IMG/VR virus record: IMGVR_UViG_3300037067_016086
Coordinates: 25,816-89,815 of that record
DNA length: 64,000 nt
Reading direction: 5' to 3' (one strand)
DNA from: a virus
Taxonomy: Duplodnaviria; Caudoviricetes
Under the pieces are notes generated by a model, which did not search any database, was not told where the DNA came from, and worked only from the letters and a program-made list of their open reading frames with translations. The translations under genes were made by a program, and so were the position numbers. Position 1 is the first letter of the stretch. Each line of letters starts with the position of its first letter. Shown here in pieces: positions 1,722 through 57,363 of this stretch.

Positions 1722-2486
1722 CTACTTGTTCGACGTCTCCCTCAGGAGAGCCGACGTGAGATCCTCGATCGACGCCTTCACGCGGGCGTGCTCCAGGTAG
1801 AAGTTCAGGTCCTTGTTGCAGACATCCTTGCCAGCGCGGACCAACTTCTCCAGGTTGTCCAAAACCTCCAGCGCGCCGTTCAGATCCCACAACGACTTCT
1901 TGGTCTGCCCGGGAACCTTGGAATCTGCGCGCTCGACGGGCTTCCAGGGCAGCACGGGCAGCTCCTGCTGCTTCGCGCAAGGATCGGCCGGAGTCGGCGC
2001 ACCCACCTTCCGAGGGTCCTTCCCGACCAGCTTCGTCACCGCATCCGCAACGTCATCCGACCAGGGCTCCGCACCCCAAAACTGGCGCTTCACCTGGCTG
2101 CACGAAATCTTCAGCTGCTGAGCGATGAGGCTGTATGCCTCCTCCATGCCCATCCCGGAGCTGCGGATCGCCGCCTTCATCTGATCCGCCTGGTCCACCT
2201 GCGCCTGCGCCTCCGGCGTCGAAGTCCGCAATGCCAGCAGGTGCCTCGAACGCCAGGTGGCCGGAGGAGCATCCCACATCTTCAACGCCTCGTGCTTGGC
2301 AGCCCAGTCCTTGAACTTCGGCCAGAAGTTCCGGTCCTTGATCGCCAGGCCGGTCATGCGCTGGAACTCCCGCACCGCGGCAAGCAGTTCCGGACCGTGA
2401 GTCTCGTTGTGAAATCGCACCGCCCGACATGCCTTCTTCTTCGCTGCGTTCATCGACTTCTCCTTCCCGGGCAACGCGCCCGGCAT
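1722..2486 (-). CDS. hypothetical, possible XRE-like HTH protein
   Basis: high-GC3 frame; helical segment AYSLIAQQLKISCSQVKRQFWG. Confidence 0.55.
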   Translation of the reverse strand: MPGALPGKEKSMNAAKKKACRAVRFHNETHGPELLAAVREFQRMTGLAIKDRNFWPKFKDWAAKHEALKMWDAPPATWRSRHLLALRTSTPEAQAQVDQADQMKAAIRSSGMGMEEAYSLIAQQLKISCSQVKRQFWGAEPWSDDVADAVTKLVGKDPRKVGAPTPADPCAKQQELPVLPWKPVERADSKVPGQTKKSLWDLNGALEVLDNLEKLVRAGKDVCNKDLNFYLEHARVKASIEDLTSALLRETSNK

Positions 2487-2488
2487 CG

Positions 2489-2815
2489 TTACGGCAACAT
2501 CACCCGCACTTCCATCCGAACTCCCAACGGCAGAAAGGACTCCGTCCTGTCTGCGACGAGATCCGCGATCCGCGCGTGCGTCTCCGGTCCGAACCACGTC
2601 CAGAGGCGTCGCATTCGCACCGTCACCAGCCCCGGTTGATTGGGCCATGTCTGCGGCGGCCCCACTAGCAAACGCAGCCACCCGAGGCGCTTCCACAGGT
2701 TGTTCAAAGTAGGCGGCTCGCCGCGGCTTCGCAGCGCCATTTGCGTTCGGACTCCCATCCCCGCCAGCACCAGCCGCACCGCCCGGCGGCGGCGCCACCA
2801 GCTGATGATTCCCAT
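2489..2815 (-). CDS. Arg/Trp-rich hypothetical protein
   Basis: GGAGGAGG RBS, high GC3 in this frame. Confidence 0.55.
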   Translation of the reverse strand: MGIISWWRRRRAVRLVLAGMGVRTQMALRSRGEPPTLNNLWKRLGWLRLLVGPPQTWPNQPGLVTVRMRRLWTWFGPETHARIADLVADRTESFLPLGVRMEVRVMLP

Positions 2816-3056
2816 TGTGCCCTCCTCCGGTGAAGAACTTGCTCGTGCAGTGGTTGAACTTGATCGGTGGCATGCGGTCGAACGCGCGACCGCTGAACGT
2901 CGTCATGCCACCCTTGTGGATGATGGCGCGGCAGCAGCGCTCCCCGATCTTCTCGCAGGCCAGGATGGTCGACACGCTGTAGGTCTTCCCGTTGTCGGCG
3001 ACCAGGTACTTCTCCCGGTCCCGGCTGCGTGGTCCACCCTTGTGACACTTGCCCAT
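2816..3056 (-). CDS. hypothetical protein (MGKCHK...) whose frame has no stop until 1722
   Basis: TGATG-coupled ATG at 3056, high GC3 over the first ~80 codons. Confidence 0.5.
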
Positions 3057-3322
3057 CAGTTCCCCCCCGCGCAAATGGCCATGTGCCCGGCCAGGGTCGA
3101 CCACTGGATGTCCACCTCGGTGCCCACGCGGATCGCCCGCTCCGTTCCGTTCACGCTCATGTCGGCCACACGCCCAGATGCAGTCACCGCGATGCTGACA
3201 GCAGCCTCCGGATAACGCTCCCCCAATGCCTTCGCGTCAGCGAGCACGTTCTGGATGGCGCGCCCCGTCTCCTGAAGGATCTCCTGGTAGGCCGCCTGCG
3301 CCTGTGTGGTCTTGAACTGCAT
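3056..3322 (-). CDS. hypothetical protein
   Basis: ORF coupled on both sides. Confidence 0.65.
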   Translation of the reverse strand: MQFKTTQAQAAYQEILQETGRAIQNVLADAKALGERYPEAAVSIAVTASGRVADMSVNGTERAIRVGTEVDIQWSTLAGHMAICAGGN

Positions 3323-4086
3323 CAGTGGCTCCCCCTCATCCGCAGCGTTTTACCGCGAGCCCCGCGCCAGTCCCTCGTCGTGAGGCACCGCTGGCAGATG
3401 TCCAGGTAGCGATCCCCATGGCTCAGCCGATCGTACACCGCCCGGATCTCTGGAGACTCCAGAACCTTGCGGAAACGGAAGATGTTCAGGTCGCCGAACG
3501 TGTGGCGCCGCTCCCAGTCGCGGCAGCACAGCCCCACGTGCCCGGTCCGGGTCACAATGAGATCCGTGAGCGGCGCGTAGCACGGCGTGGTCAGATGCAC
3601 CGGCGCCGCATCGTAGATGCCGAACACCTCCACCCAGTTGGAGTCGTAGATCGTCATAAAGTCGGGACGCGTGTCGAGAGAACGCAGCCGCTCCAACTCC
3701 TCCGCGCCGTACGCTGTCACAGCCAGGTGGTTCAGACCCACGCTGCGCAGGTCACGGATCAGATGCTCGTCCAGGGTCGTGCCGTTCGTCCAGATCAGCG
3801 TCTTGGCCCGAGGGACCGTTCGGTTCACGCGTTCCAGGAACCAGAGCAGCCGCGGGTCCATGAGCGGCTCCCCGTACTGGTGGAAGCTGATGCACCCAGC
3901 GAACCCTGCATCCCGGAGATCGTCGAGCACCTGGAACACCACGGCCGATGACAGGTTCTCGGGCGGACGCGCCGCCTCCAGATGCGCCGGGCAGCGCGGG
4001 TGCAAGTGCGACAGGTTGCAGCGGTTCGATAGCTCGAAGTTCACCCGGTCGAGTTTCTCGAAAGGATCTGCGCACCCGATGCTCAT
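3322..4086 (-). CDS. radical SAM/SPASM-domain protein with atypical Fe-S motif
   Basis: FELSNRCNLSHLHPRCP, YGEPL, TNGT, SPASM-like C...GHVGLCCRD...CQRC; ATGA start at 4086. Confidence 0.75.
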   Translation of the reverse strand: MSIGCADPFEKLDRVNFELSNRCNLSHLHPRCPAHLEAARPPENLSSAVVFQVLDDLRDAGFAGCISFHQYGEPLMDPRLLWFLERVNRTVPRAKTLIWTNGTTLDEHLIRDLRSVGLNHLAVTAYGAEELERLRSLDTRPDFMTIYDSNWVEVFGIYDAAPVHLTTPCYAPLTDLIVTRTGHVGLCCRDWERRHTFGDLNIFRFRKVLESPEIRAVYDRLSHGDRYLDICQRCLTTRDWRGARGKTLRMRGSH

Positions 4087-4136
4087 TCCGTCTCTCCGAT
4101 CAGCTTCTTCCAAACCCGGAGAGGGACCGCAACCCA
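4083..4136 (-). pseudogene. displaced original C-terminus of the resolvase
   Basis: WVAVPLRVWKKLIGETE* vs active WVCVPLRCWKKLMGESE* (13/17 identical). Confidence 0.9.
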
Positions 4137-4140
4137 GTAA

Positions 4141-4884
4141 TCAATCATGATTTTCTGGTTCATGCCCGTATCTCCGACGTTGTGCATCGCTCATCCTCTT
4201 GATCGTTTCCTTGGAAAATTTCCTTCCTTTGAAAATCTCACTCAACTTCTTCTTCTGGTCTTCCGATACGGGACGCCCACGTCGAGACTCTGACATCTTT
4301 CTCCTGGACTCATCGCTGTGATGCTTCCCAAGATTTGCAACCCTCAATTTCTCTCGGGTAGATTCGGCGATCTCCTTGCCCCTACATCTCTTCCCAAGTT
4401 CTCGAATTTGCTCACGCATCGCATCTGTCGCTATACCCTTGTGAGCAGCACTGTGATTCGCTCGCATCTCATCCGTCCAAACCCGCTTCCGATTAGCTTC
4501 CCCTACCGCCATCCGAACGTGATCTGGCTGCACCCATCCCGTCGTCCTGCCAGCCGTCGGGGACAGGTTGTATCCGCGTTCCACGGCCCCGGTATCGTCT
4601 ATGTGCCGTTGCTCCGCTTCCAGCAAAACATCCTCGGAAACGAGTTCTACGACCTCCACTGCGAACGAATCCTCCCCATATTTTGCCCACGCTGCCTGGA
4701 GGTAGTTATTGTGATGCTTTCCGCGCCGAAGCGCAGCACGGTGTTGATTCAGACGAAAACGAAGTCTCCCGGCACTCCCGATGTAGAACTTGCCGTTGAC
4801 CGTATTCTCGATCCGGTAGATCCCCGGCACGTTTGGGATGTGGTCGACGTTCACTCGGACTCTCCCATTAATTTTTTCCAGCAT
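4141..4884 (-). CDS. GIY-YIG homing endonuclease with NUMOD3-like repeats
   Basis: GIYRIEN...FYIGSA, R..QH, basic repeats KHHSDESRRKMS; AT-rich; start ATG 4884 or GTG 4854. Confidence 0.9.
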   Translation of the reverse strand: MLEKINGRVRVNVDHIPNVPGIYRIENTVNGKFYIGSAGRLRFRLNQHRAALRRGKHHNNYLQAAWAKYGEDSFAVEVVELVSEDVLLEAEQRHIDDTGAVERGYNLSPTAGRTTGWVQPDHVRMAVGEANRKRVWTDEMRANHSAAHKGIATDAMREQIRELGKRCRGKEIAESTREKLRVANLGKHHSDESRRKMSESRRGRPVSEDQKKKLSEIFKGRKFSKETIKRMSDAQRRRYGHEPENHD

Positions 4885-5207
4885 CGCAAGGGTACGCACA
4901 CCCAGTCCCTCTCTCCGTGTGCGCTGTTCGCCCCCCCCGCGATCTCGATGGCCAGCGCGGGCTCCTTGCCAGCCGCGGCAGCCTCCGCCGCGATTTTGTC
5001 CAGCCACGACTTCTTGATGCTCAGGCTCGCGTGCACGGTCCTCTTGCACTCGATGAGGAAGTGGTCGGCCAGCACGTCACCCTTCGCGAACTTGGACGCG
5101 CCACTCCCCGCCTGCCGGTGTCCTCGCACCTCGCGCGCCACGAGCCGCTCCTGCGCCTCCGGAGACTTCGCGTCGGGGAACAGGACGTGCGGACGATGAC
5201 GCGTCAC
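4851..5207 (-). CDS. Holliday junction resolvase, PD-(D/E)XK (Hjc-like)
   Basis: GSGA..KGDV...FLIECKRT motif. Confidence 0.8.
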   Translation of the reverse strand: MTRHRPHVLFPDAKSPEAQERLVAREVRGHRQAGSGASKFAKGDVLADHFLIECKRTVHASLSIKKSWLDKIAAEAAAAGKEPALAIEIAGGANSAHGERDWVCVPLRCWKKLMGESE

Positions 5208-41255: not shown

Positions 41256-41398
41256 ACGCTCTCCGTGTTCTTGGCGCAGTTGGCCTGCTTTCCCTTCTTC
41301 TTGCGCTCCAGGTAGTCCACGCTGACCAGCTTGAGGATCACCCGCCCGCACTCCGGATCGCGCCGCGGCGTCAGCGGCTTCACGACGCAGCCCTCGCG
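41252..41398 (-). pseudogene. displaced original C-terminus of the RNA ligase
   Basis: REGCVVKPLTPRRDPECGRVILKLVSVDYL... 28/30 identical to the active end at 43922-44023. Confidence 0.95.
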
Positions 41399-43921: not shown

Positions 43922-44893
43922 TTACCGCCTCTTCAGGTAGTCCACCGAAACCAATTTCAACTTGACTCGCCCACATTCCGGGTCCCTTCGAGGGGTGAGC
44001 GGGGAGACGACGCAGCCCTCACGGATGTTGTCCGCCCCCGGGATCGTGGAGTTGCCATCCGCCAGCATGGCCAGCTCGGGCGACCAGGCTCCGACGAACA
44101 GGAGCGGCGCCGTCGGCAGACCCAGGTCCGCGAAGATCGCGCGGGCCGTCACGGGAGGCAGCCACTCGCCGCCGTGCCGGATGTCGTAGAAGGCCAGCCG
44201 CAGCCCGAACTTGCTCCGGTCGATGCCGTAGTGGTAGCCCTTCACGGAGCCGTACAGCTCGCCGTAGAACACGTGGTCCGGGTAGCGCGCCAGCTTCTCC
44301 TCCAGTCCGAGATCGTCCGCGGCCCGCCACCAGGCCACTCGTGGGTCCCGGATCTTCCACCGCGTGTGCGACCCCGCGTGCAGCGCGCCGTCCACGAACA
44401 CGAACCGGGAGTTCTCCCCGTTGATCTTCTCGGAGATCTCCACCGGCTCGCCCGGCTTGATGATCTCGCTGAAGCGCCGCATCGACTCCACGTCGTAGTG
44501 CACCGCGTCGACCTTGGGCGCCGGAGCATCCAGGCCGTCGCCGCTCGGCGGCGGCTCCCAGTGCGTGCATCCCAGCTCCACCATCACGTCGTCGCCCTCT
44601 TTCCAGCCGGGACGCGCCTTGATGAGCAGTCCGAACGACTGCACGCCGCGCAGCCGCTTCGCCGAGATCCGCTTCATGCCGTCCTTGGCCTGGTCCGCCA
44701 GGAACGCGAACTCGGGCTGCGCCACCGGGACCATCGTATCGGGCTCGACGAACGCCGCGAGATCGCCGACGTGGAAGTCGCCGATGCGCGCGCACGAGGT
44801 GTAACCCCACACGTGAACCACTTCCAAAGAATCCGCGTCGGGATGTTTGTCGATCTGACCGATTCGAACCACCTTCACCGCGTGCTGGCTCAT
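43922..44893 (-). CDS. ATP-dependent RNA ligase (Rnl2/DRB0094-like, with N-terminal OB-like domain)
   Basis: HPDADSLE, EKINGEN (KxxG), YGE, FYD, REGCVV, K.K. Confidence 0.9.
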   Translation of the reverse strand: MSQHAVKVVRIGQIDKHPDADSLEVVHVWGYTSCARIGDFHVGDLAAFVEPDTMVPVAQPEFAFLADQAKDGMKRISAKRLRGVQSFGLLIKARPGWKEGDDVMVELGCTHWEPPPSGDGLDAPAPKVDAVHYDVESMRRFSEIIKPGEPVEISEKINGENSRFVFVDGALHAGSHTRWKIRDPRVAWWRAADDLGLEEKLARYPDHVFYGELYGSVKGYHYGIDRSKFGLRLAFYDIRHGGEWLPPVTARAIFADLGLPTAPLLFVGAWSPELAMLADGNSTIPGADNIREGCVVSPLTPRRDPECGRVKLKLVSVDYLKRR

Positions 44894-51868: not shown

Positions 51869-52062
51869 GTCGTCTCCTCCGTGCAGCCACAGACGGACGC
51901 GTACCCGCACCCCGTGGCATCGCAGGCCCGACAGATCCAGTCCTCGTAGCCGTCGCTCACGCGCCCGCTGCCGTGGCACAGCGAGCAGTCGTAGTGCTCG
52001 TTGCACGGGAACCGGGACCTGTCCCCATCGCACCGATCCCGCTCATCATCGCGCAGAGCCAT
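51865..52062 (-). CDS. small DnaJ-type zinc-finger-like protein
   Basis: CSLCHGSG...CRACDATG. Confidence 0.6.
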   Translation of the reverse strand: MALRDDERDRCDGDRSRFPCNEHYDCSLCHGSGRVSDGYEDWICRACDATGCGYASVCGCTEETT

Positions 52063-52335
52063 CTACCCCGCCTTCAACTGCTGGTTCAGCACATAGGCAG
52101 CCTGGAGTCCCTCGTGCTTCAGCGGCTCCGCCACCCACTCCAGCGTCCAGTTCCCGGCCCCGAAGTGCGCGTCGTAGCGGTCGTGCTTCCAGTCCGATCC
52201 GATACCCAGATCGTGCGGCACGAAGCCGATGTCGGAGCAGCAATGCTGCGCCAACAAGTGCCCGTCGTCGCCGATGGCCATGGCGCTCAGCCACCCGGGC
52301 GAGCCACCGTTGCAGAAGCAGTAGATCGTGTGCAT
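52063..52335 (-). CDS. hypothetical protein
   Basis: AGGAGG RBS right after the rtcB remnant stop. Confidence 0.7.
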   Translation of the reverse strand: MHTIYCFCNGGSPGWLSAMAIGDDGHLLAQHCCSDIGFVPHDLGIGSDWKHDRYDAHFGAGNWTLEWVAEPLKHEGLQAAYVLNQQLKAG

Positions 52336-52346
52336 CTCGTCCTCCT

Positions 52347-52457
52347 TTACTCCGCCTTCAAATTGAGGATCGGCCGGATCTCCTCGACCACCTCGACCGT
52401 CGGCCCGATGGCCGTCCGGATCGCGTTCGCGTCCTTGTAGGCCGCGGGTCCGGACTC
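52347..52457 (-). pseudogene. displaced original C-terminus of RtcB
   Basis: ESGPAAYKDANAIRTAIGPTVEVVEEIRPILNLKAE* vs active EAPSAYKNADDIRAAIKPTVEVIEEIKPILNCKAI*. Confidence 0.95.
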
Positions 52458-52461
52458 GTTG

Positions 52462-52490
52462 TTGACATGATCCTTGTAAGCATCTACAGT
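52462..52490 (+). promoter_or_regulatory. cassette promoter for the double-HNH gene
   Basis: TTGACA-N17-TACAGT. Confidence 0.75.
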
Positions 52491-52520
52491 GTTCATGCCA
52501 AATGCAAAAAGGACATCATC

Positions 52521-53210
52521 ATGATCTGTGGTAAGTGCAAAATGGACAAGAACACAAATGATTTCCACCAGGGCCAACTTCACGGCGGGTATTGCAAAGA
52601 CTGCATGCGCATCTACGGTCAGCAATACTACCGCAACAACAAGAACCACCACTTGCAGATCACGAACCAAATTCGCCGAGAACGAAGCGCCCGGCGGCGT
52701 GAATTTGTCCAGAAGATGAAGACCATCCCATGCGCCGACTGCGGACACGTTTTCCACTCCTTCGTCATGGATCTTGACCATCGCAACCCTGCGTCCAAAT
52801 TGGCGAGCATTCAATATCTGCTGTATTCCGCATCGGAAAAGATATTCCACGAAGAGCTGCTGAAATGCGATGTTGTTTGCGTCAACTGCCACAGAGATCG
52901 GGAACAGAAACGGTACTTGATCAAGCATCCAATCCCGACCCACTTGTCCCCTCGGCAAACATGGAACAAGGCAATAAAAGATCTCGCCAAGTCCAATCCA
53001 TGCACCGATTGTGGAGGTACATTCCACTCGTGGCAGATGGATCTGGATCATGTTCGGGGTGACAAAGTTGGCCGCGTTGGAAGCCTCTCCCACAAAGTGT
53101 CCACCGATGTTTTGGAGCGAGAGATCGAAAAATGCGAACCTGTCTGCGCAAACTGTCACAGAGTTCGCACCTTTACACGCAATCCTCCCCGGAAACATCT
53201 TACCTCCTAG
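52521..53210 (+). CDS. endonuclease with two tandem HNH domains
   Basis: C.DCG..FH...MDLDH...KC..VC.NCHR twice; AAGGA RBS. Confidence 0.85.
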   Translation: MICGKCKMDKNTNDFHQGQLHGGYCKDCMRIYGQQYYRNNKNHHLQITNQIRRERSARRREFVQKMKTIPCADCGHVFHSFVMDLDHRNPASKLASIQYLLYSASEKIFHEELLKCDVVCVNCHRDREQKRYLIKHPIPTHLSPRQTWNKAIKDLAKSNPCTDCGGTFHSWQMDLDHVRGDKVGRVGSLSHKVSTDVLEREIEKCEPVCANCHRVRTFTRNPPRKHLTS

Positions 53211-54517
53211 ATCGCCTTGCAATTGAGAATCGGCTTAATTTCTTCGATAACTTCCACCGTTGGTTTGATGGCAGCCCTAATATCGTCTGCATTTTTGTAA
53301 GCGGAAGGCGCCTCGTCCAGCGGGATGCAGCTCGTGTAGATCCCTTCCATGCTGGCCCGCGCCGCCACCGGGTCCAGCTCCCTCTTGGCCTGAGACCGGC
53401 TCATGAGGCGGCCCGCCCCGTGCGGCGCCGACTCGTTCCAGTCCTTGTTCCCAAGGCCGCGGCAGATCCAGCTGCCGTCCCGCATGTTGAACGGGATGAT
53501 CAGCCGGTCTCCGAGCGCCGCGCGCACCGCCCCCTTGCGGATGACCAGGTCCCTCGGGTCGATGTAGTTGTGGACCGTCTCGATCAGATCCTGGCTGCCG
53601 ACGTCCAGAACCCCGAGCACCTCGGCCAGGATGGATCGGCGGTTCTGAGCCGCGTAGATCTGCGCGAAGACCATGTCCTCCACGTAGGCGAACAGGTCCT
53701 CGCCGCGCAGCGACTCCAGACCGCTGGGCACCGCCACCAGGGCCCGCTGCGTCTCCTTGTACCGCTTGATGCGCTTGTCGATCTCGTGGTTCGGCGACGA
53801 CCTCCGGATCACCTCGATCTCGGACTGGTACTCGCCGGTCTTGAAATCCAGCAGCTGCTTGGCGGCCAGTCCCTGGTGGTACTTGCAGATCTTCTCGCCC
53901 AGCTGCCGCGACCCGCTGTGGATCAGCACCCAGGCCGTCCCGGGTTCGGCGCCGAGGGCCACCTCGATGAAGTGGTTGCCGCCCCCCAACGATCCGATCG
54001 ATCGCTGCGCGCGCCCGTACTTCATCCCCACCCGCTTGCAGAGGTCCTTGAAGACACCCTGCGAGGCGCCCCAGTCCAGCGCGCGGAACCCTCCGCCCGC
54101 GAACCGGTCGTTCAGCTTGCGGCGTACCACGGTCATCAGCGCGTGCGTCCCGTCGTAGAAGGGATCGTCGTCCAGCAGCTCGTGGCAGTCGTCGGTCCGC
54201 ACCTCGTGCGCGAACGGAACCCGGTCTCGGATCTCGCGATCGAGACGCTCCAGGCTGATGCCAGCGCGCCAGGGAACCCGCGCCGCCAGCACGCCGCAGC
54301 CAATGTCGACGCCCACTATTCCAGGAACTACGGCATCCCCGAGTGGCATTGTAAACCCTATCGGAGCGCCAGCCCCGGCATGGACGTCCGGCATCATCAC
54401 GATGCGCCCAGTGAAAGCCGGGGAATTCACGATCTGCGTCAGCTGCGCCATCGTGGCACTGTCGACCGTTTCAGCAGTCACGGTCACTGTCGTGTATTTC
54501 CCTTGAATATCGAACAT
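53207..54517 (-). CDS. rtcB: RtcB RNA 3'-phosphate/5'-OH ligase with both termini replaced
   Basis: MPDVH, VGVDIGCG, GSLGGGNHFIE, IHSGSR, HNY, HGAGR.MSR, DEAP.AYK. Confidence 0.95.
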   Translation of the reverse strand: MFDIQGKYTTVTVTAETVDSATMAQLTQIVNSPAFTGRIVMMPDVHAGAGAPIGFTMPLGDAVVPGIVGVDIGCGVLAARVPWRAGISLERLDREIRDRVPFAHEVRTDDCHELLDDDPFYDGTHALMTVVRRKLNDRFAGGGFRALDWGASQGVFKDLCKRVGMKYGRAQRSIGSLGGGNHFIEVALGAEPGTAWVLIHSGSRQLGEKICKYHQGLAAKQLLDFKTGEYQSEIEVIRRSSPNHEIDKRIKRYKETQRALVAVPSGLESLRGEDLFAYVEDMVFAQIYAAQNRRSILAEVLGVLDVGSQDLIETVHNYIDPRDLVIRKGAVRAALGDRLIIPFNMRDGSWICRGLGNKDWNESAPHGAGRLMSRSQAKRELDPVAARASMEGIYTSCIPLDEAPSAYKNADDIRAAIKPTVEVIEEIKPILNCKAI

Positions 54518-54529
54518 CGCCACCCCTCC

Positions 54530-55006
54530 TTACCATCCTCCAAAATGCTCAACGCGGTGACAACAAGAGCAGACCAGATCGCACTTCTCTGCCTCCACCA
54601 CGATGGCCTTCCACGCACGGTTCACGAGCTGTGGAATGTTCAGCGCGAAAACCTTCACGGCAGGATCTCGATGATGGAAGTCGAACGCTGCACCGTTCTT
54701 CCCATCGTATTTCATGCCACACAGCACGCAGAAACCTCCCAGGAGAAGGATCAATTTGACCTTCCGACTTCGGCCATACTCCAACTTGTAGCCAATCCGA
54801 ACCTCCCGATTTCGATGGTTCCACTCGCGCTTGTACTGCGTTGGGTTCTCGTACTTTCTGTTGTTGTGCCCAGAAACGTACCGCTTCTGCCTCCCGTACG
54901 GGTCCATCGACTTGATGAGTTCCCCGCATCCACAGGCACATGCGATCGTGGGAGCCGCTTCGAAAAGTCGCTCATTGCGTCGGTCCTTGCACTCTTTCCT
55001 CGTCAT
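54530..55006 (-). CDS. HNH homing endonuclease
   Basis: CACGCG; C..CG...FDFHHRDP..K...EAEKCDLVCSCCHR.EH; own TTGAGA-N16-TATACT promoter and GGAGG RBS. Confidence 0.85.
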   Translation of the reverse strand: MTRKECKDRRNERLFEAAPTIACACGCGELIKSMDPYGRQKRYVSGHNNRKYENPTQYKREWNHRNREVRIGYKLEYGRSRKVKLILLLGGFCVLCGMKYDGKNGAAFDFHHRDPAVKVFALNIPQLVNRAWKAIVVEAEKCDLVCSCCHRVEHFGGW

Positions 55007-55076
55007 GGGTACCTCCAGATCGGAGTATACCACATCCGTTGTCTATCTCAAAAAAAATGGACGATATTGGTTGTTC

Positions 55077-55277
55077 GATGTTCGGGATGATCGCCTCGCC
55101 CAGCGGCATCGTGAACCCGATCACCGATCCCGCGCCCGCGTGCGTGTCCGGCATGATGGCCACCGGCCCCGTGAAGGCCGGGTGGTTGACCATGCCCGTG
55201 ATCTGCGCGATGCAGCTGGCCTCAACCTGGTCCGCGTAGACCGTCGCCGTCGTGTACTTGCCCTCGATCGTAAACAT
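55077..55277 (-). pseudogene. displaced original N-terminus of RtcB (67 codons; frame runs on to 54972)
   Basis: MFTIEGKYTT...MPDTHAGAGSVIGFTMPLGEAIIPNI, 41/67 identical to the active start. Confidence 0.95.
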
Positions 55278-55597
55278 CAGGCACCTCCGAAATCGTTCCA
55301 GTCGCCGCGCTCCAGCGCGAAGTGATCCACCGCGATGTGCACGTAGTTTTTCCCCGGCGGGCTGTTCTCCTCGCTCGCCCGGAACTCGAAGCGATCCGTC
55401 CCGTCCAGGATGACCTCGTAGGCGTGCCGGTCGACGCGCTCCACCCCTAACTCGCGCGCCAGACGTTCGAACTCGTCCGCTATGAAGCTCGCGTGCTCCC
55501 ACGAGGCCCCGTAGATCAGGATCGGCAACTGCTCCGCGTTGTCCCGCATGGACAGCACATGCTCCAGCATCGCTCGCGTCTTTCCGGTCCCGCGCAT
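55277..55597 (-). CDS. small P-loop-like protein
   Basis: RGTGKT at the N-terminus; GGAGG RBS. Confidence 0.55.
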   Translation of the reverse strand: MRGTGKTRAMLEHVLSMRDNAEQLPILIYGASWEHASFIADEFERLARELGVERVDRHAYEVILDGTDRFEFRASEENSPPGKNYVHIAVDHFALERGDWNDFGGA

Positions 55598-55639
55598 CTA
55601 CACCTCCTCGGCCGCGCATCGCACACGGTATCCTCGGGA

Positions 55640-55668
55640 AGTTTAACCGGTGCTGTTGCGTTTGTCAA
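55640..55668 (-). promoter_or_regulatory. sigma70-type promoter for the rtcB block
   Basis: TTGACA-N17-TAAACT. Confidence 0.8.
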
Positions 55669-57363
55669 CTACCGTGTGGAGAGGCGGAACACGTTGCCGC
55701 CGCGCCAGGCCACCACCTCGTCGCCGCGCGCCGCCAGCCGCAGGTCCGACACGGCCGGGTCGCTGATCCGCTTCCCCTGCTGCGTGCCGCGCGCCGGGAA
55801 CAGCGCGAGGTCGCCAGCTTCGTCGATCATGGCCACCACGCCCTTGGGCAGCGCCACGAAGTTGAGATCGCCGTGCCCCACGTTGCGATCCACCCAGCGC
55901 AGCTTGGCCGCGCTGCCGCCCACCTCGTACACGTAGCGATCCACGGTGCCCGCGCGTTCCGCCGCCACGATCAGCGCCGGTCCCTCGCAGCGCGCGCCGA
56001 CCACACGAGCCCCGTCGAGGTCCGCCAGCCGCACCTGGTCGCTGCGCCCCGACGCCGGGAACAGGTTGGCGTACCAGGCCCCCAGGACGCTCTGCATCGC
56101 CACGCCCGGGTACAGCTGCGTCGCCAGCGGGGCCACGTTGGCCACCACCCGCGGAGCGCCTAGCAGTTTGCCGCCCGCCTCGAAGAACTCGATCTCGACC
56201 ACGCTCTCCCCGCTGTGCACGTACACGCGCCCGTCAGTGATCGCCAGAGCCCGGCCTCGCAGCGTCAGCGCCACCTCCGCGCCCCCCTGCCGCAGGTCTC
56301 GCACGTGCACGTCCCCGCGATCCAGCCAGGCGTACAGGGGCACCCCGGCCGCCGTATGGGCCAGGTGTCCGCCCGCCTCCACCGGCACCTCGCGGTTGCG
56401 TCCCCCGTCCAGAACCCAGACCACGCGCCCGGTCGACCGGGAGATGATCGCGGCCTCCTCGCCGCCCCAGGCCACGTACTCCAGGATGTCGCCGGTGTGG
56501 GCCACGCGGAGCAGCGTCAGCGTCACCGCCGTCGCGCTGGCCACCGGCCGCGCCGTGCCCAGGGCCGTGCTGATCTGCGCATCCGCCGGGGGCACGCCTC
56601 TGAATCCGTCCTCGAACATGGCCTTGTACCAGGCCCGGTACGCGCCCGGGATCACGTCGAACGGCGGGACCATCTGCGGCACCGACACCGCGCGGTTGAA
56701 CACCGACAGGTTGCCCCGCATGCGCTCCGGCAGGCCCCGCACGATCGGGTGCTTCCCCTTGTAGGGGTGGATGCCCACGAAGAGCTGGAAGGTCACGATG
56801 CCCCACGAGTACCAGTCCGATCCCACCGTCCAGTGCCCGCCCGCGCTCCAGTCCCGGACGCCCTCCATGAGCGCCGTGGCCGGGAAGTGCGGCGTCTGGT
56901 AGGAGTCCACGTCGATGAAGAACACCTCGCCGAAGTCGGGCGCCACCAGGAAGTTCATCTCGTTGGCGTCGACCACCAGGACGCCCGCCGCGTGCACCGC
57001 GCCCATGCTGCGCTGCATGCCCTGCACGATCCGCAGCACCGTGGCGCCATCCACGCCCTCGCGATCCCGGAACGCCCGCGTGAAGAGCTGGCAGAGCGGG
57101 TGCGCGTCCGCCACGCGCCGCATGCTGTAGCCCACCGCGTTCCCCTTGCCGTCGAGCAGGACCCGCCGGGGTCGCACGACGCTCTCGTCCGCGATGCCCG
57201 CCAGCTCCGCGATCTTGGCCTCCGGGATCATGCGCTCCGGCTTGAGGTACACCTTGAACGCCTCGTCTCCGTGCCCGAAAACTTGCCCTTCACCCCCCGC
57301 CGCGATGAAGTTGGCCTGCGTGAGGTTGACCTGGCCGCCGCCCCGGATCGCGTACTTCGTCAT
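55669..57363 (-). CDS. Hanks-type Ser/Thr protein kinase-like protein with C-terminal beta-rich domain
   Basis: GGEGQV, AFKVY, DANEMNFLV, IDVDS, DWYSWG..F. Confidence 0.8.
   Translation of the reverse strand: MTKYAIRGGGQVNLTQANFIAAGGEGQVFGHGDEAFKVYLKPERMIPEAKIAELAGIADESVVRPRRVLLDGKGNAVGYSMRRVADAHPLCQLFTRAFRDREGVDGATVLRIVQGMQRSMGAVHAAGVLVVDANEMNFLVAPDFGEVFFIDVDSYQTPHFPATALMEGVRDWSAGGHWTVGSDWYSWGIVTFQLFVGIHPYKGKHPIVRGLPERMRGNLSVFNRAVSVPQMVPPFDVIPGAYRAWYKAMFEDGFRGVPPADAQISTALGTARPVASATAVTLTLLRVAHTGDILEYVAWGGEEAAIISRSTGRVVWVLDGGRNREVPVEAGGHLAHTAAGVPLYAWLDRGDVHVRDLRQGGAEVALTLRGRALAITDGRVYVHSGESVVEIEFFEAGGKLLGAPRVVANVAPLATQLYPGVAMQSVLGAWYANLFPASGRSDQVRLADLDGARVVGARCEGPALIVAAERAGTVDRYVYEVGGSAAKLRWVDRNVGHGDLNFVALPKGVVAMIDEAGDLALFPARGTQQGKRISDPAVSDLRLAARGDEVVAWRGGNVFRLSTR

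Follow-up and report, generated by a model that had tools for sequence, protein, structure and literature searches.

A phage rtcB gene with substitute copies of both its ends, probably brought in by two homing-endonuclease cassettes that need no splicing

We describe here an rtcB gene from a 64,000-nucleotide stretch of viral DNA (the window), part of the 89.8 kb IMG/VR virus record IMGVR_UViG_3300037067_016086, which is estimated to be about half complete. Very probably this gene has been invaded twice by homing-endonuclease cassettes that require neither an intron nor an intein. Homing endonucleases in essential genes are usually said to hide in self-splicing introns or inteins or to sit between genes; the arrangement in the window suggests a third solution in phage, which is to bring along a spare copy of a gene end, applied here to both ends of one gene. 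Since the cassettes carry substitute gene ends, rtcB stays whole without splicing, and its translated product appears from the sequence to be a chimera of three parts in which the catalytic core is native, both native ends lying stranded outside it as intact remnants.

Layout and origin of the three-part rtcB

Read along the minus strand, the locus comprises the native rtcB start, cassette 1, the native core, cassette 2 and the native C-terminus, and the order and place of all of these parts are as an initial annotation of the sequence had stated. The stranded native N-terminus (55077..55277, minus strand; 67 codons, MFTIEGKY...IIPNI) is followed by the 760-bp cassette 1 (54317..55076, minus), which lies between ATC (I67) and GTG (V68) of the native gene and contains, in order, a promoter-like site (55024..55051, minus; TTGAGA, 16 nt, TATACT, with TG before it), the gene for the HNH-type homing endonuclease HNH1 (54530..55006, minus; 158 amino acids (aa)), a ribosome-binding site, AAGGAGG, between the HNH1 stop and the in-frame rtcB ATG, and a substitute rtcB N-terminus of 67 codons (54317..54517, minus) that is now the start of the translated gene. 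Then come the native core (53307..54316, minus; codons 68-404) and, after GAC GAG GCG CC (DEAP), cassette 2 (52449..53306, minus; ~858 bp, with a 2-nt CC ambiguity). The latter supplies the last 32 codons of the translated gene, a substitute C-terminus (53207..53306, minus; SAYKNADD...NCKAI plus stop), together with a gene convergent with rtcB, HNH2 (52521..53210, plus; 229 aa), that encodes a zinc-ribbon-like start and two tandem HNH motifs and has its own promoter-like site (52462..52490, plus; TTGACA, 17 nt, TACAGT). Both promoter-like sites were located by a consensus scan. The stranded native C-terminus (52347..52448, minus) reads AAYKDANAIRTAIGPTVEVVEEIRPILNLKAE plus stop, with its 32 codons and stop at 52445..52347. 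The join at VGVDIGCG stands as first annotated, whereas the C-side join, which had been placed inside DE|AP, lies after DEAP (GAC GAG GCG CC|). The identity counts between remnant and in-frame copies that accompanied that annotation are exact, at 41/67 aa for the N-terminus (also 122/201 nt) and 22/31 from AYK for the C-terminus.

The in-frame rtcB extends from the ATG at 54517 to the stop at 53207 (minus), and the 67 substitute start codons and 32 substitute end codons keep its 436-aa frame open. The product matches the RtcB profile (PF01139) with an E-value of 8e-63 and 213 bits over model positions 1-425 of 426. All of the catalytic motifs, VDIGC, GGGNHF, HSGSR, HNY and PHGAGR, are held in the core, and residues D71, C74, N181, H182, H200, H316 and H366 are invariant across the clade, the chimera included. 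The Asp and Cys of the VDIGC motif bind metal. Alignment to the structures 1UC2 and 4DWQ of the Protein Data Bank (PDB) covers both VDIGC and PHGAGR, and in RtcB of Pyrococcus horikoshii VGVDIGCG aligns to IGYDINCGV and DEAPSAYKNAD to EEAPGAYKNVD, so that the motifs at the two insertion sites, claimed earlier to be conserved, are so as far as archaeal RtcB.

Native and cassette parts differ in base composition far beyond chance. The GC content of third codon positions (GC3) is 0.955 in the N-terminal remnant, 0.94 in the C-terminal remnant and 0.92 in core codons 68-404, as compared with 0.63 and 0.52 in the in-frame N- and C-terminal ends, 0.67 in HNH1 and 0.62 in HNH2. Codons that end in A or T number 25 of 67 in the substitute N-terminus and 18 of 303 in the core (Fisher p = 2e-10). 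Such codons are also enriched in the first part of the core, codons 68-100 (54019-54316; 7/33 vs 18/303 in the rest, p = 0.006), a stretch with lower identity than the remaining core to L030, a related contig described below; it may be a short co-conversion tract that runs from cassette 1 into the native core.

The displaced native ends are closer to related RtcB proteins than the in-frame copies are. Twelve relatives, 57-76% identical, are all uninterrupted and have N- and C-termini of the remnant type. The N-terminal remnant is identical to those of P0002-P0011 at 58-65 of 67 residues (65/67 for P0002) and to those of P0012-P0013 at 45-51, and the C-terminal remnant matches P0008 at 32/32 residues, while the in-frame ends share with the same relatives 37-42 of 67 residues (N) and 20-24 of ~30 aligned residues (C). 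In DNA the N-terminal remnant is identical to L004, a second related contig, at 174 of 201 positions and to L030 at 97%, and the C-terminal remnant to L004 at 87 of 99. The core has 79-80% aa identity to P0002 and is nested in a three-row clade with support of 98.

Trees of the separate segments, which the initial annotation had proposed as a check, place the remnants and the core on short end branches inside the clade of the 12 RtcB proteins (N remnant 0.016, C remnant 0.041, core 0.078) and the substitute ends on long ones (N 0.73, C 0.59). The substitute ends still join the same RtcB clade as the remnants, with support of 97 for the N-terminal one; therefore they do not appear to be imports from a distant RtcB lineage and may be taken for copies from a deep or fast-evolving member of the clade. 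Residues identical between substitute and remnant use the same codon in 14 of 41 cases for the N-terminus and in 9 of 22 for the C-terminus, where 22 of 32 aa are identical.

Alleles in which the cassettes are missing were found both in related contigs and in metagenomes. Two related, syntenic contigs, L004 (205 kb) and L030 (49 kb), have an uninterrupted rtcB, and a kinase-like neighbour gene of L030 is 90% identical in nucleotides to that of the window. Codon-level comparison with both contigs defines cassette 1 as a clean insertion of 760 bp and cassette 2 as a clean insertion of ~858 bp. Logan contigs of four metagenome runs were compared with the region. In X2, which may be the sample that this DNA came from, and in X3, a run of another study, single contigs with zero differences and depths of ~88-117 bridge both junctions of each cassette, and run X4 provides a 1187-nt contig across cassette 1. 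Run X3 also contains a contig that joins 54317 to 55078, skipping 760 bases at a depth of 64.6, and thus represents the empty cassette 1 site. For the empty cassette 2 site a contig of X3 joins 52423 to 53307 (883 bases skipped, depth 53.2) and one of X2 joins 52430 to 53316 (885 skipped, depth 10.8), the letters between the two sides reading AAYKDAA on the gene strand. Filled and empty alleles therefore co-occur, and because contigs of X3 join across both cassettes a sister strain with an uninterrupted rtcB lives in the same landfill sample. A single phylogeny for all three segments and a lack of empty alleles had been named at the outset as what would speak against the chimera; we find empty alleles in L004, in L030 and in contigs of X2 and X3.

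The endonucleases and their relatives

HNH1 matches PHROG HNH families with an E-value of 2e-17. In an alignment of 35 members of its family H111, H112, C146, C149, H150 and C93/C96 are invariant and N148 is nearly so; the Pfam HNH profile is reached by 4 of the 35 and by neither HNH1 nor HNH2 of the window. An AlphaFold model of HNH1 has a mean predicted local distance difference test score (pLDDT) of 90.9, and its residues 73-158 align consistently, with Z scores of middling strength (4.4-5.4), to the HNH domains of Cap5, Cas9, the Gme nicking enzyme and T4 endonuclease VII (root-mean-square deviations of 3.3-4.2 over 60-69 residues). Foldseek returned no match for the model at an E-value of 0.001 or better, all values being >0.1, and sequence searches of the PDB with HNH1 and HNH2 gave nothing at E up to 1.

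The relatives of HNH1 are 45-67% identical to it, the closest being P0122, and several of them are found at rtcB. In the Bacillus phages Goe27 and CM1 an HNH1-family insertion lies inside rtcB between GGN GTT and GAY ATH GGN TGY, that is, at V|D of VGVDIGCG and 9 nt from the cassette 1 junction of the window. In Goe27 (OM728304, positions 2012-5178; L024) rtcB has two insertions and in CM1 (LC785692, 2016-4028; L025) one, and the rtcB pieces of both phages are annotated as separate hypothetical proteins. A search of Goe27 against Rfam gave RF00028 with 67 bits for the second intron and weak group I matches of 29-30 bits that flank the HNH gene, while the sister phage Goe3 has an uninterrupted, intronless rtcB. 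The viral contig L007 has an HNH1-family, intron-like insertion at the same rtcB point, in which Rfam found no intron core.

In four further contigs (L008, L009, L027 and L029) a gene of the HNH1 family is free-standing, directly upstream of an intact rtcB, and no N-terminal rtcB remnant is present upstream of it in L008, L027 or L029. Similarly, as Bonocora and Shub reportedly described in 2009, I-TslI of phage PhiI is intron-borne and gene 5.3 of T3 free-standing beside the same gene. The HNH1 family is likewise either intron-borne (Goe27, CM1 and, intron-like, L007) or free-standing; it differs in that the window appears to add a third state at one rtcB site, inside the gene and intronless, with a substitute gene start. 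One further candidate, an HNH1 relative with a start resembling the RtcB N-terminus (L112), was dropped as there is no rtcB nearby.

HNH2 matches PHROG HNH families with an E-value of 9e-43 in two stretches, and an internal repeat is seen. The proteins closest to it, at 48-51% identity, are extended by an additional N-terminal part, and their genes sit immediately downstream of rtcB in the same orientation; P0204 is the closest for which gene context is available and L111 an example of the downstream position. Proteins with tandem HNH domains form a large group, with 1376 that match HNH2 at E <=1e-8. In both endonuclease groups the HNH domain is again found duplicated in tandem, as observed in P0123 and in a protein of L022 (2974-3744). 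In P0184 an open reading frame of the HNH1 family continues in frame into an RtcB C-terminus from EELDEAPGAYKD, at the DEAP motif, and in P0011, one of the RtcB relatives, a stop codon directly after DEAP closes the gene call, 36 nt before the contig ends. Judging from such sequences, other endonucleases probably make use of the DEAP site as well.

Both cassette promoters include elements that resemble the targets. Upstream of HNH1-family genes there is an element, GAyAyAGGnTGTGkTATA, that is similar to the rtcB target GAYATHGGNTGYGG and overlaps the -10 box. It is conserved in L007, L027, L024 and L025 and more weakly in L029, that is, in both intron-borne and free-standing relatives. The match to the target of the same locus is 14/18 in L007 (about 1255-1272) and in L027 (560-583), with shuffle p <0.001, and the L027 element encodes GVDIGCGI, the target peptide of that locus itself. 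In the window the corresponding element, GACAACGGATGTGGTATA (55043..55026, minus), overlaps the -10 of the cassette 1 promoter-like site and agrees with its own target at only 11/18 positions (shuffle p = 0.10); a 14-mer search of the window with 3 mismatches allowed gave no enrichment of the target-like element. What supports the window element is thus its conservation across loci, and not the window taken by itself. Within the HNH2 promoter the spacer includes GCTTACAAGGAT (52481..52470, minus), similar to the native target GCCTACAAGGAC; a pattern search found 13 such matches in the 64 kb, corresponding to a ~1-2% chance of one in a 72-nt stretch. I-TevI is known for an autoregulatory operator, and the elements described here could be operators of this type or relics of a flanking exon reused as a promoter.

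Homing and competing explanations

That two separate events gave rise to the three-part chimera, as the initial annotation had proposed, is borne out by several of the above results, as HNH1 and HNH2 are only distantly related, are oriented oppositely, are separated by 1 kb of native core and have separate sets of relatives, each linked to the corresponding end of rtcB. In the mechanism that we favor each endonuclease would cut an uninterrupted allele at or near its own insertion point, and the break would be repaired from a cassette-bearing genome, with the remnant and the core providing homology, and the cassette would thereby be transferred as a unit. Since its substitute end departs from the native sequence next to the junction, the filled allele would then be protected both from re-cutting and from recombinational loss; of the 15 nt that precede V68 8 are changed, and of the 22 nt that follow DEAP 10. 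Initially the cassettes were probably captured from a phage that had a free-standing endonuclease beside rtcB, in a repair event with homology on the gene-internal side alone, which would fit the free-standing relatives as well as the mild excess of A/T-ending codons in codons 68-100.

Several points weigh against this scheme. The run data are Logan contigs and not raw reads, so strain phasing and allele frequencies are rough, and no allele with a single cassette was recovered. Polymorphism for presence and absence gives, by itself, no direction of gain or loss, and it is because the 12 relatives are uninterrupted that the empty state is taken as ancestral. The cut sites are deduced from the insertion junctions and the intron position only, and the filled allele retains the native VGVDIGCG DNA unchanged, so that any immunity to HNH1 must rest on the changed bases upstream of the junction. 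Finally, no donor of a near-identical cassette came to light. Identity to the nearest relative is 67% for HNH1 and 51% for HNH2, no near-identical cassette turned up in the viral contigs or the protein collection searched, and a donor search found no phage record with DNA similarity beyond short conserved stretches of rtcB. In isolated phages the substitute N-terminus has no match of >50% identity, and a scan of metagenome contigs with generic RtcB motifs returned only relatives of <=43% identity and no further alleles of this clade.

The explanation that competes best with homing, though we regard it as unlikely, is that the two structures are one-off repair accidents that do not home, produced when phages with free-standing HNH genes flanking rtcB (of the L008/L027/L029 type upstream and the L111 type downstream) cut the rtcB of this phage. 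Repair would have relied on homology at the gene-internal side and been illegitimate at the other, with the native ends left by chance. In its favor, the free-standing relatives next to rtcB are without a remnant, the exactness of the two junctions is what a break at the end of the native DNA would give, and the A/T-ending excess in codons 68-100 could be a co-conversion tract. Remnant and core nevertheless give two-sided homology, so that further homing into the co-occurring empty alleles is unhindered, and the same layout recurs at other genes in the window, as discussed below. Moreover, accidents of this kind concern the origin of the structures only and are compatible with homing by the cassettes thereafter.

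A second explanation, duplication of the gene ends in place followed by drift, with HNH genes landing between the copies later and no foreign import, seems improbable to us. While the placement of the substitute ends in the clade of the remnants is what a local origin would give, the synonymous divergence (dS) between substitute ends and remnants is saturated, as compared with a dS of 0.088 between the N-terminal remnant and L030. In addition, the substitute ends resemble the HNH genes and not the host in their low GC3, and in the empty alleles the duplicate and the HNH gene are missing together, each site showing a single exact junction.

Still less probable is that the cassettes are degenerate introns or inteins which are spliced out, the functional product being a fully native RtcB made from remnants and core, even though HNH1 relatives are intron-borne at almost the same site and Goe27 has the weak group I matches and the 67-bit second intron noted above. 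Window positions 52000-55800 gave no Rfam match at E up to 1, the cassette boundaries do not show the U and G that group I splice sites should have, and HNH2 is on the opposite strand. Splicing would also be superfluous, as the substitute end in each cassette is complete, in frame and equipped with a start or stop of its own. Lastly, a chimeric assembly of two co-occurring strains or phages can practically be dismissed, for although two strains do co-occur in X3, identical contigs bridge all four junctions in X2 and X3, runs of two studies, with zero differences and at ~88-117 depth, and the 1187-nt contig of X4 adds to these.

Related systems and neighboring features

Among described systems the closest in layout are the mORF gene hybrids of fungal mitochondria, found in atp6 of Allomyces macrogynus and in atp6, atp9, cox2 and nad3 of Glomus sp. 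(Beaudet et al. 2013, PMC3630166). As in the window, an endonuclease reading frame comes with a foreign in-frame C-terminus, the native end is stranded downstream and a close relative has an empty site; the stranded native C-termini there are 91-98% identical to relatives in nucleotides versus 64-81% for the inserted copies (PMC3630166). The mORF hybrids, however, involve LAGLIDADG or GIY-YIG enzymes, organelle genomes and C-termini only, whereas the present case has HNH enzymes in a phage and affects the N-terminus too, hence both ends. With the N-terminus replaced, cassette 1 must bring a promoter-like site, a ribosome-binding site and a start codon.

The WHO elements of Torulaspora and Lachancea yeasts likewise have a conserved housekeeping gene, FBA1, as their homing target and rely on neither protein nor RNA splicing, but they are nuclear and eukaryotic, their enzymes are intein-related and their clusters have grown solely by repeated homing at the 3' end (Coughlan et al. 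2020, PMC7282813). In T4 an HNH-type cassette, MobA, resides in a conserved phage gene, at gene 60, and carries a homologous region in place of the gene part with its own nicking site; there the topoisomerase gene is split into two reading frames, 55-75 nt are deleted and translational bypass is needed (bioRxiv 10.1101/2022.08.31.505936), while rtcB here remains undivided and has suffered no deletion, with the displaced native ends still present. Both cassette enzymes are HNH-type, and not LAGLIDADG, GIY-YIG or WHO/intein enzymes, and the resemblance to the mORF and WHO elements is one of working and not of descent. In a literature search this layout was not encountered for any phage gene, although its coverage was incomplete and it is thus not proof of absence. 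What is new here is the double-ended case, the N-terminal replacement together with expression signals, the co-occurring empty alleles and the presence of one endonuclease family in three lifestyles at one site.

These features have several consequences. Natural recipients are at hand as cassette-free sister alleles in the same landfill and groundwater samples, and with three lifestyles of one family at a single rtcB site evolutionary transitions are directly comparable. Cassettes of this type create chimeric enzymes, orphan peptide reading frames and abrupt switches in codon usage that gene callers and phylogenies will misread unless the layout is recognized, and they offer a route by which pieces of conserved RNA-repair genes can be exchanged between phages of different base composition.

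Self-comparison of the window by tblastx, the output of which is mostly low-complexity, GC-rich noise with few real pairs, gave two further same-strand duplications of gene ends, 41300-41398 vs 43925-44023 (88% aa identity, 2.5 kb apart) and 4044-4136 vs 4812-4904 (61%, 0.7 kb apart). These fit the same cassette layout at other genes. A far-reaching version of the homing scheme, in which the cassettes are active spliceless units used at many genes, their ends are kept divergent by selection on the cassette itself, as an escape from self-cleavage and recombinational loss, each endonuclease controls its own promoter through a target-like operator and HNH1 switches between three lifestyles, is possible but in our judgment doubtful.

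The signals around the displaced parts allow some statements as to their expression. The ATG of the stranded N-terminus (55277) overlaps the stop of a 106-aa upstream gene (TGATG) and GGAGG is found 6 nt upstream; its open frame enters cassette 1 and stops at 54972, for a total of 101 aa. Translation of the stranded N-terminal peptide is plausible since GGAGG and the coupled ATG are kept. The rtcB and HNH2 stops overlap in the palindrome CTAG (53207-53210) and, because there is neither an intergenic spacer nor a terminator, HNH2 transcripts would run antisense into rtcB. Antisense to HNH2 is an open frame of 291 codons (52347-53222, minus), in frame with the stranded native C-terminus, that has a GGAGG and an ATG at 53197 just past the rtcB stop and is without a family match; it is probably a by-product of an HNH2 gene that has no TTA, CTA or TCA codons.

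The window is GC-rich (64%), and RNA-repair genes lie near rtcB, including one for a tRNA nucleotidyltransferase. The 106-aa gene, which has a P-loop-like start (GTGKT), is itself polymorphic for presence and absence together with a promoter-like site (55281-55668). In L030 rtcB directly follows the kinase-like gene, with the 106-aa gene region not between them, and a contig of run X3 passes over the whole of it, 388 bases, at a depth of 57.9.

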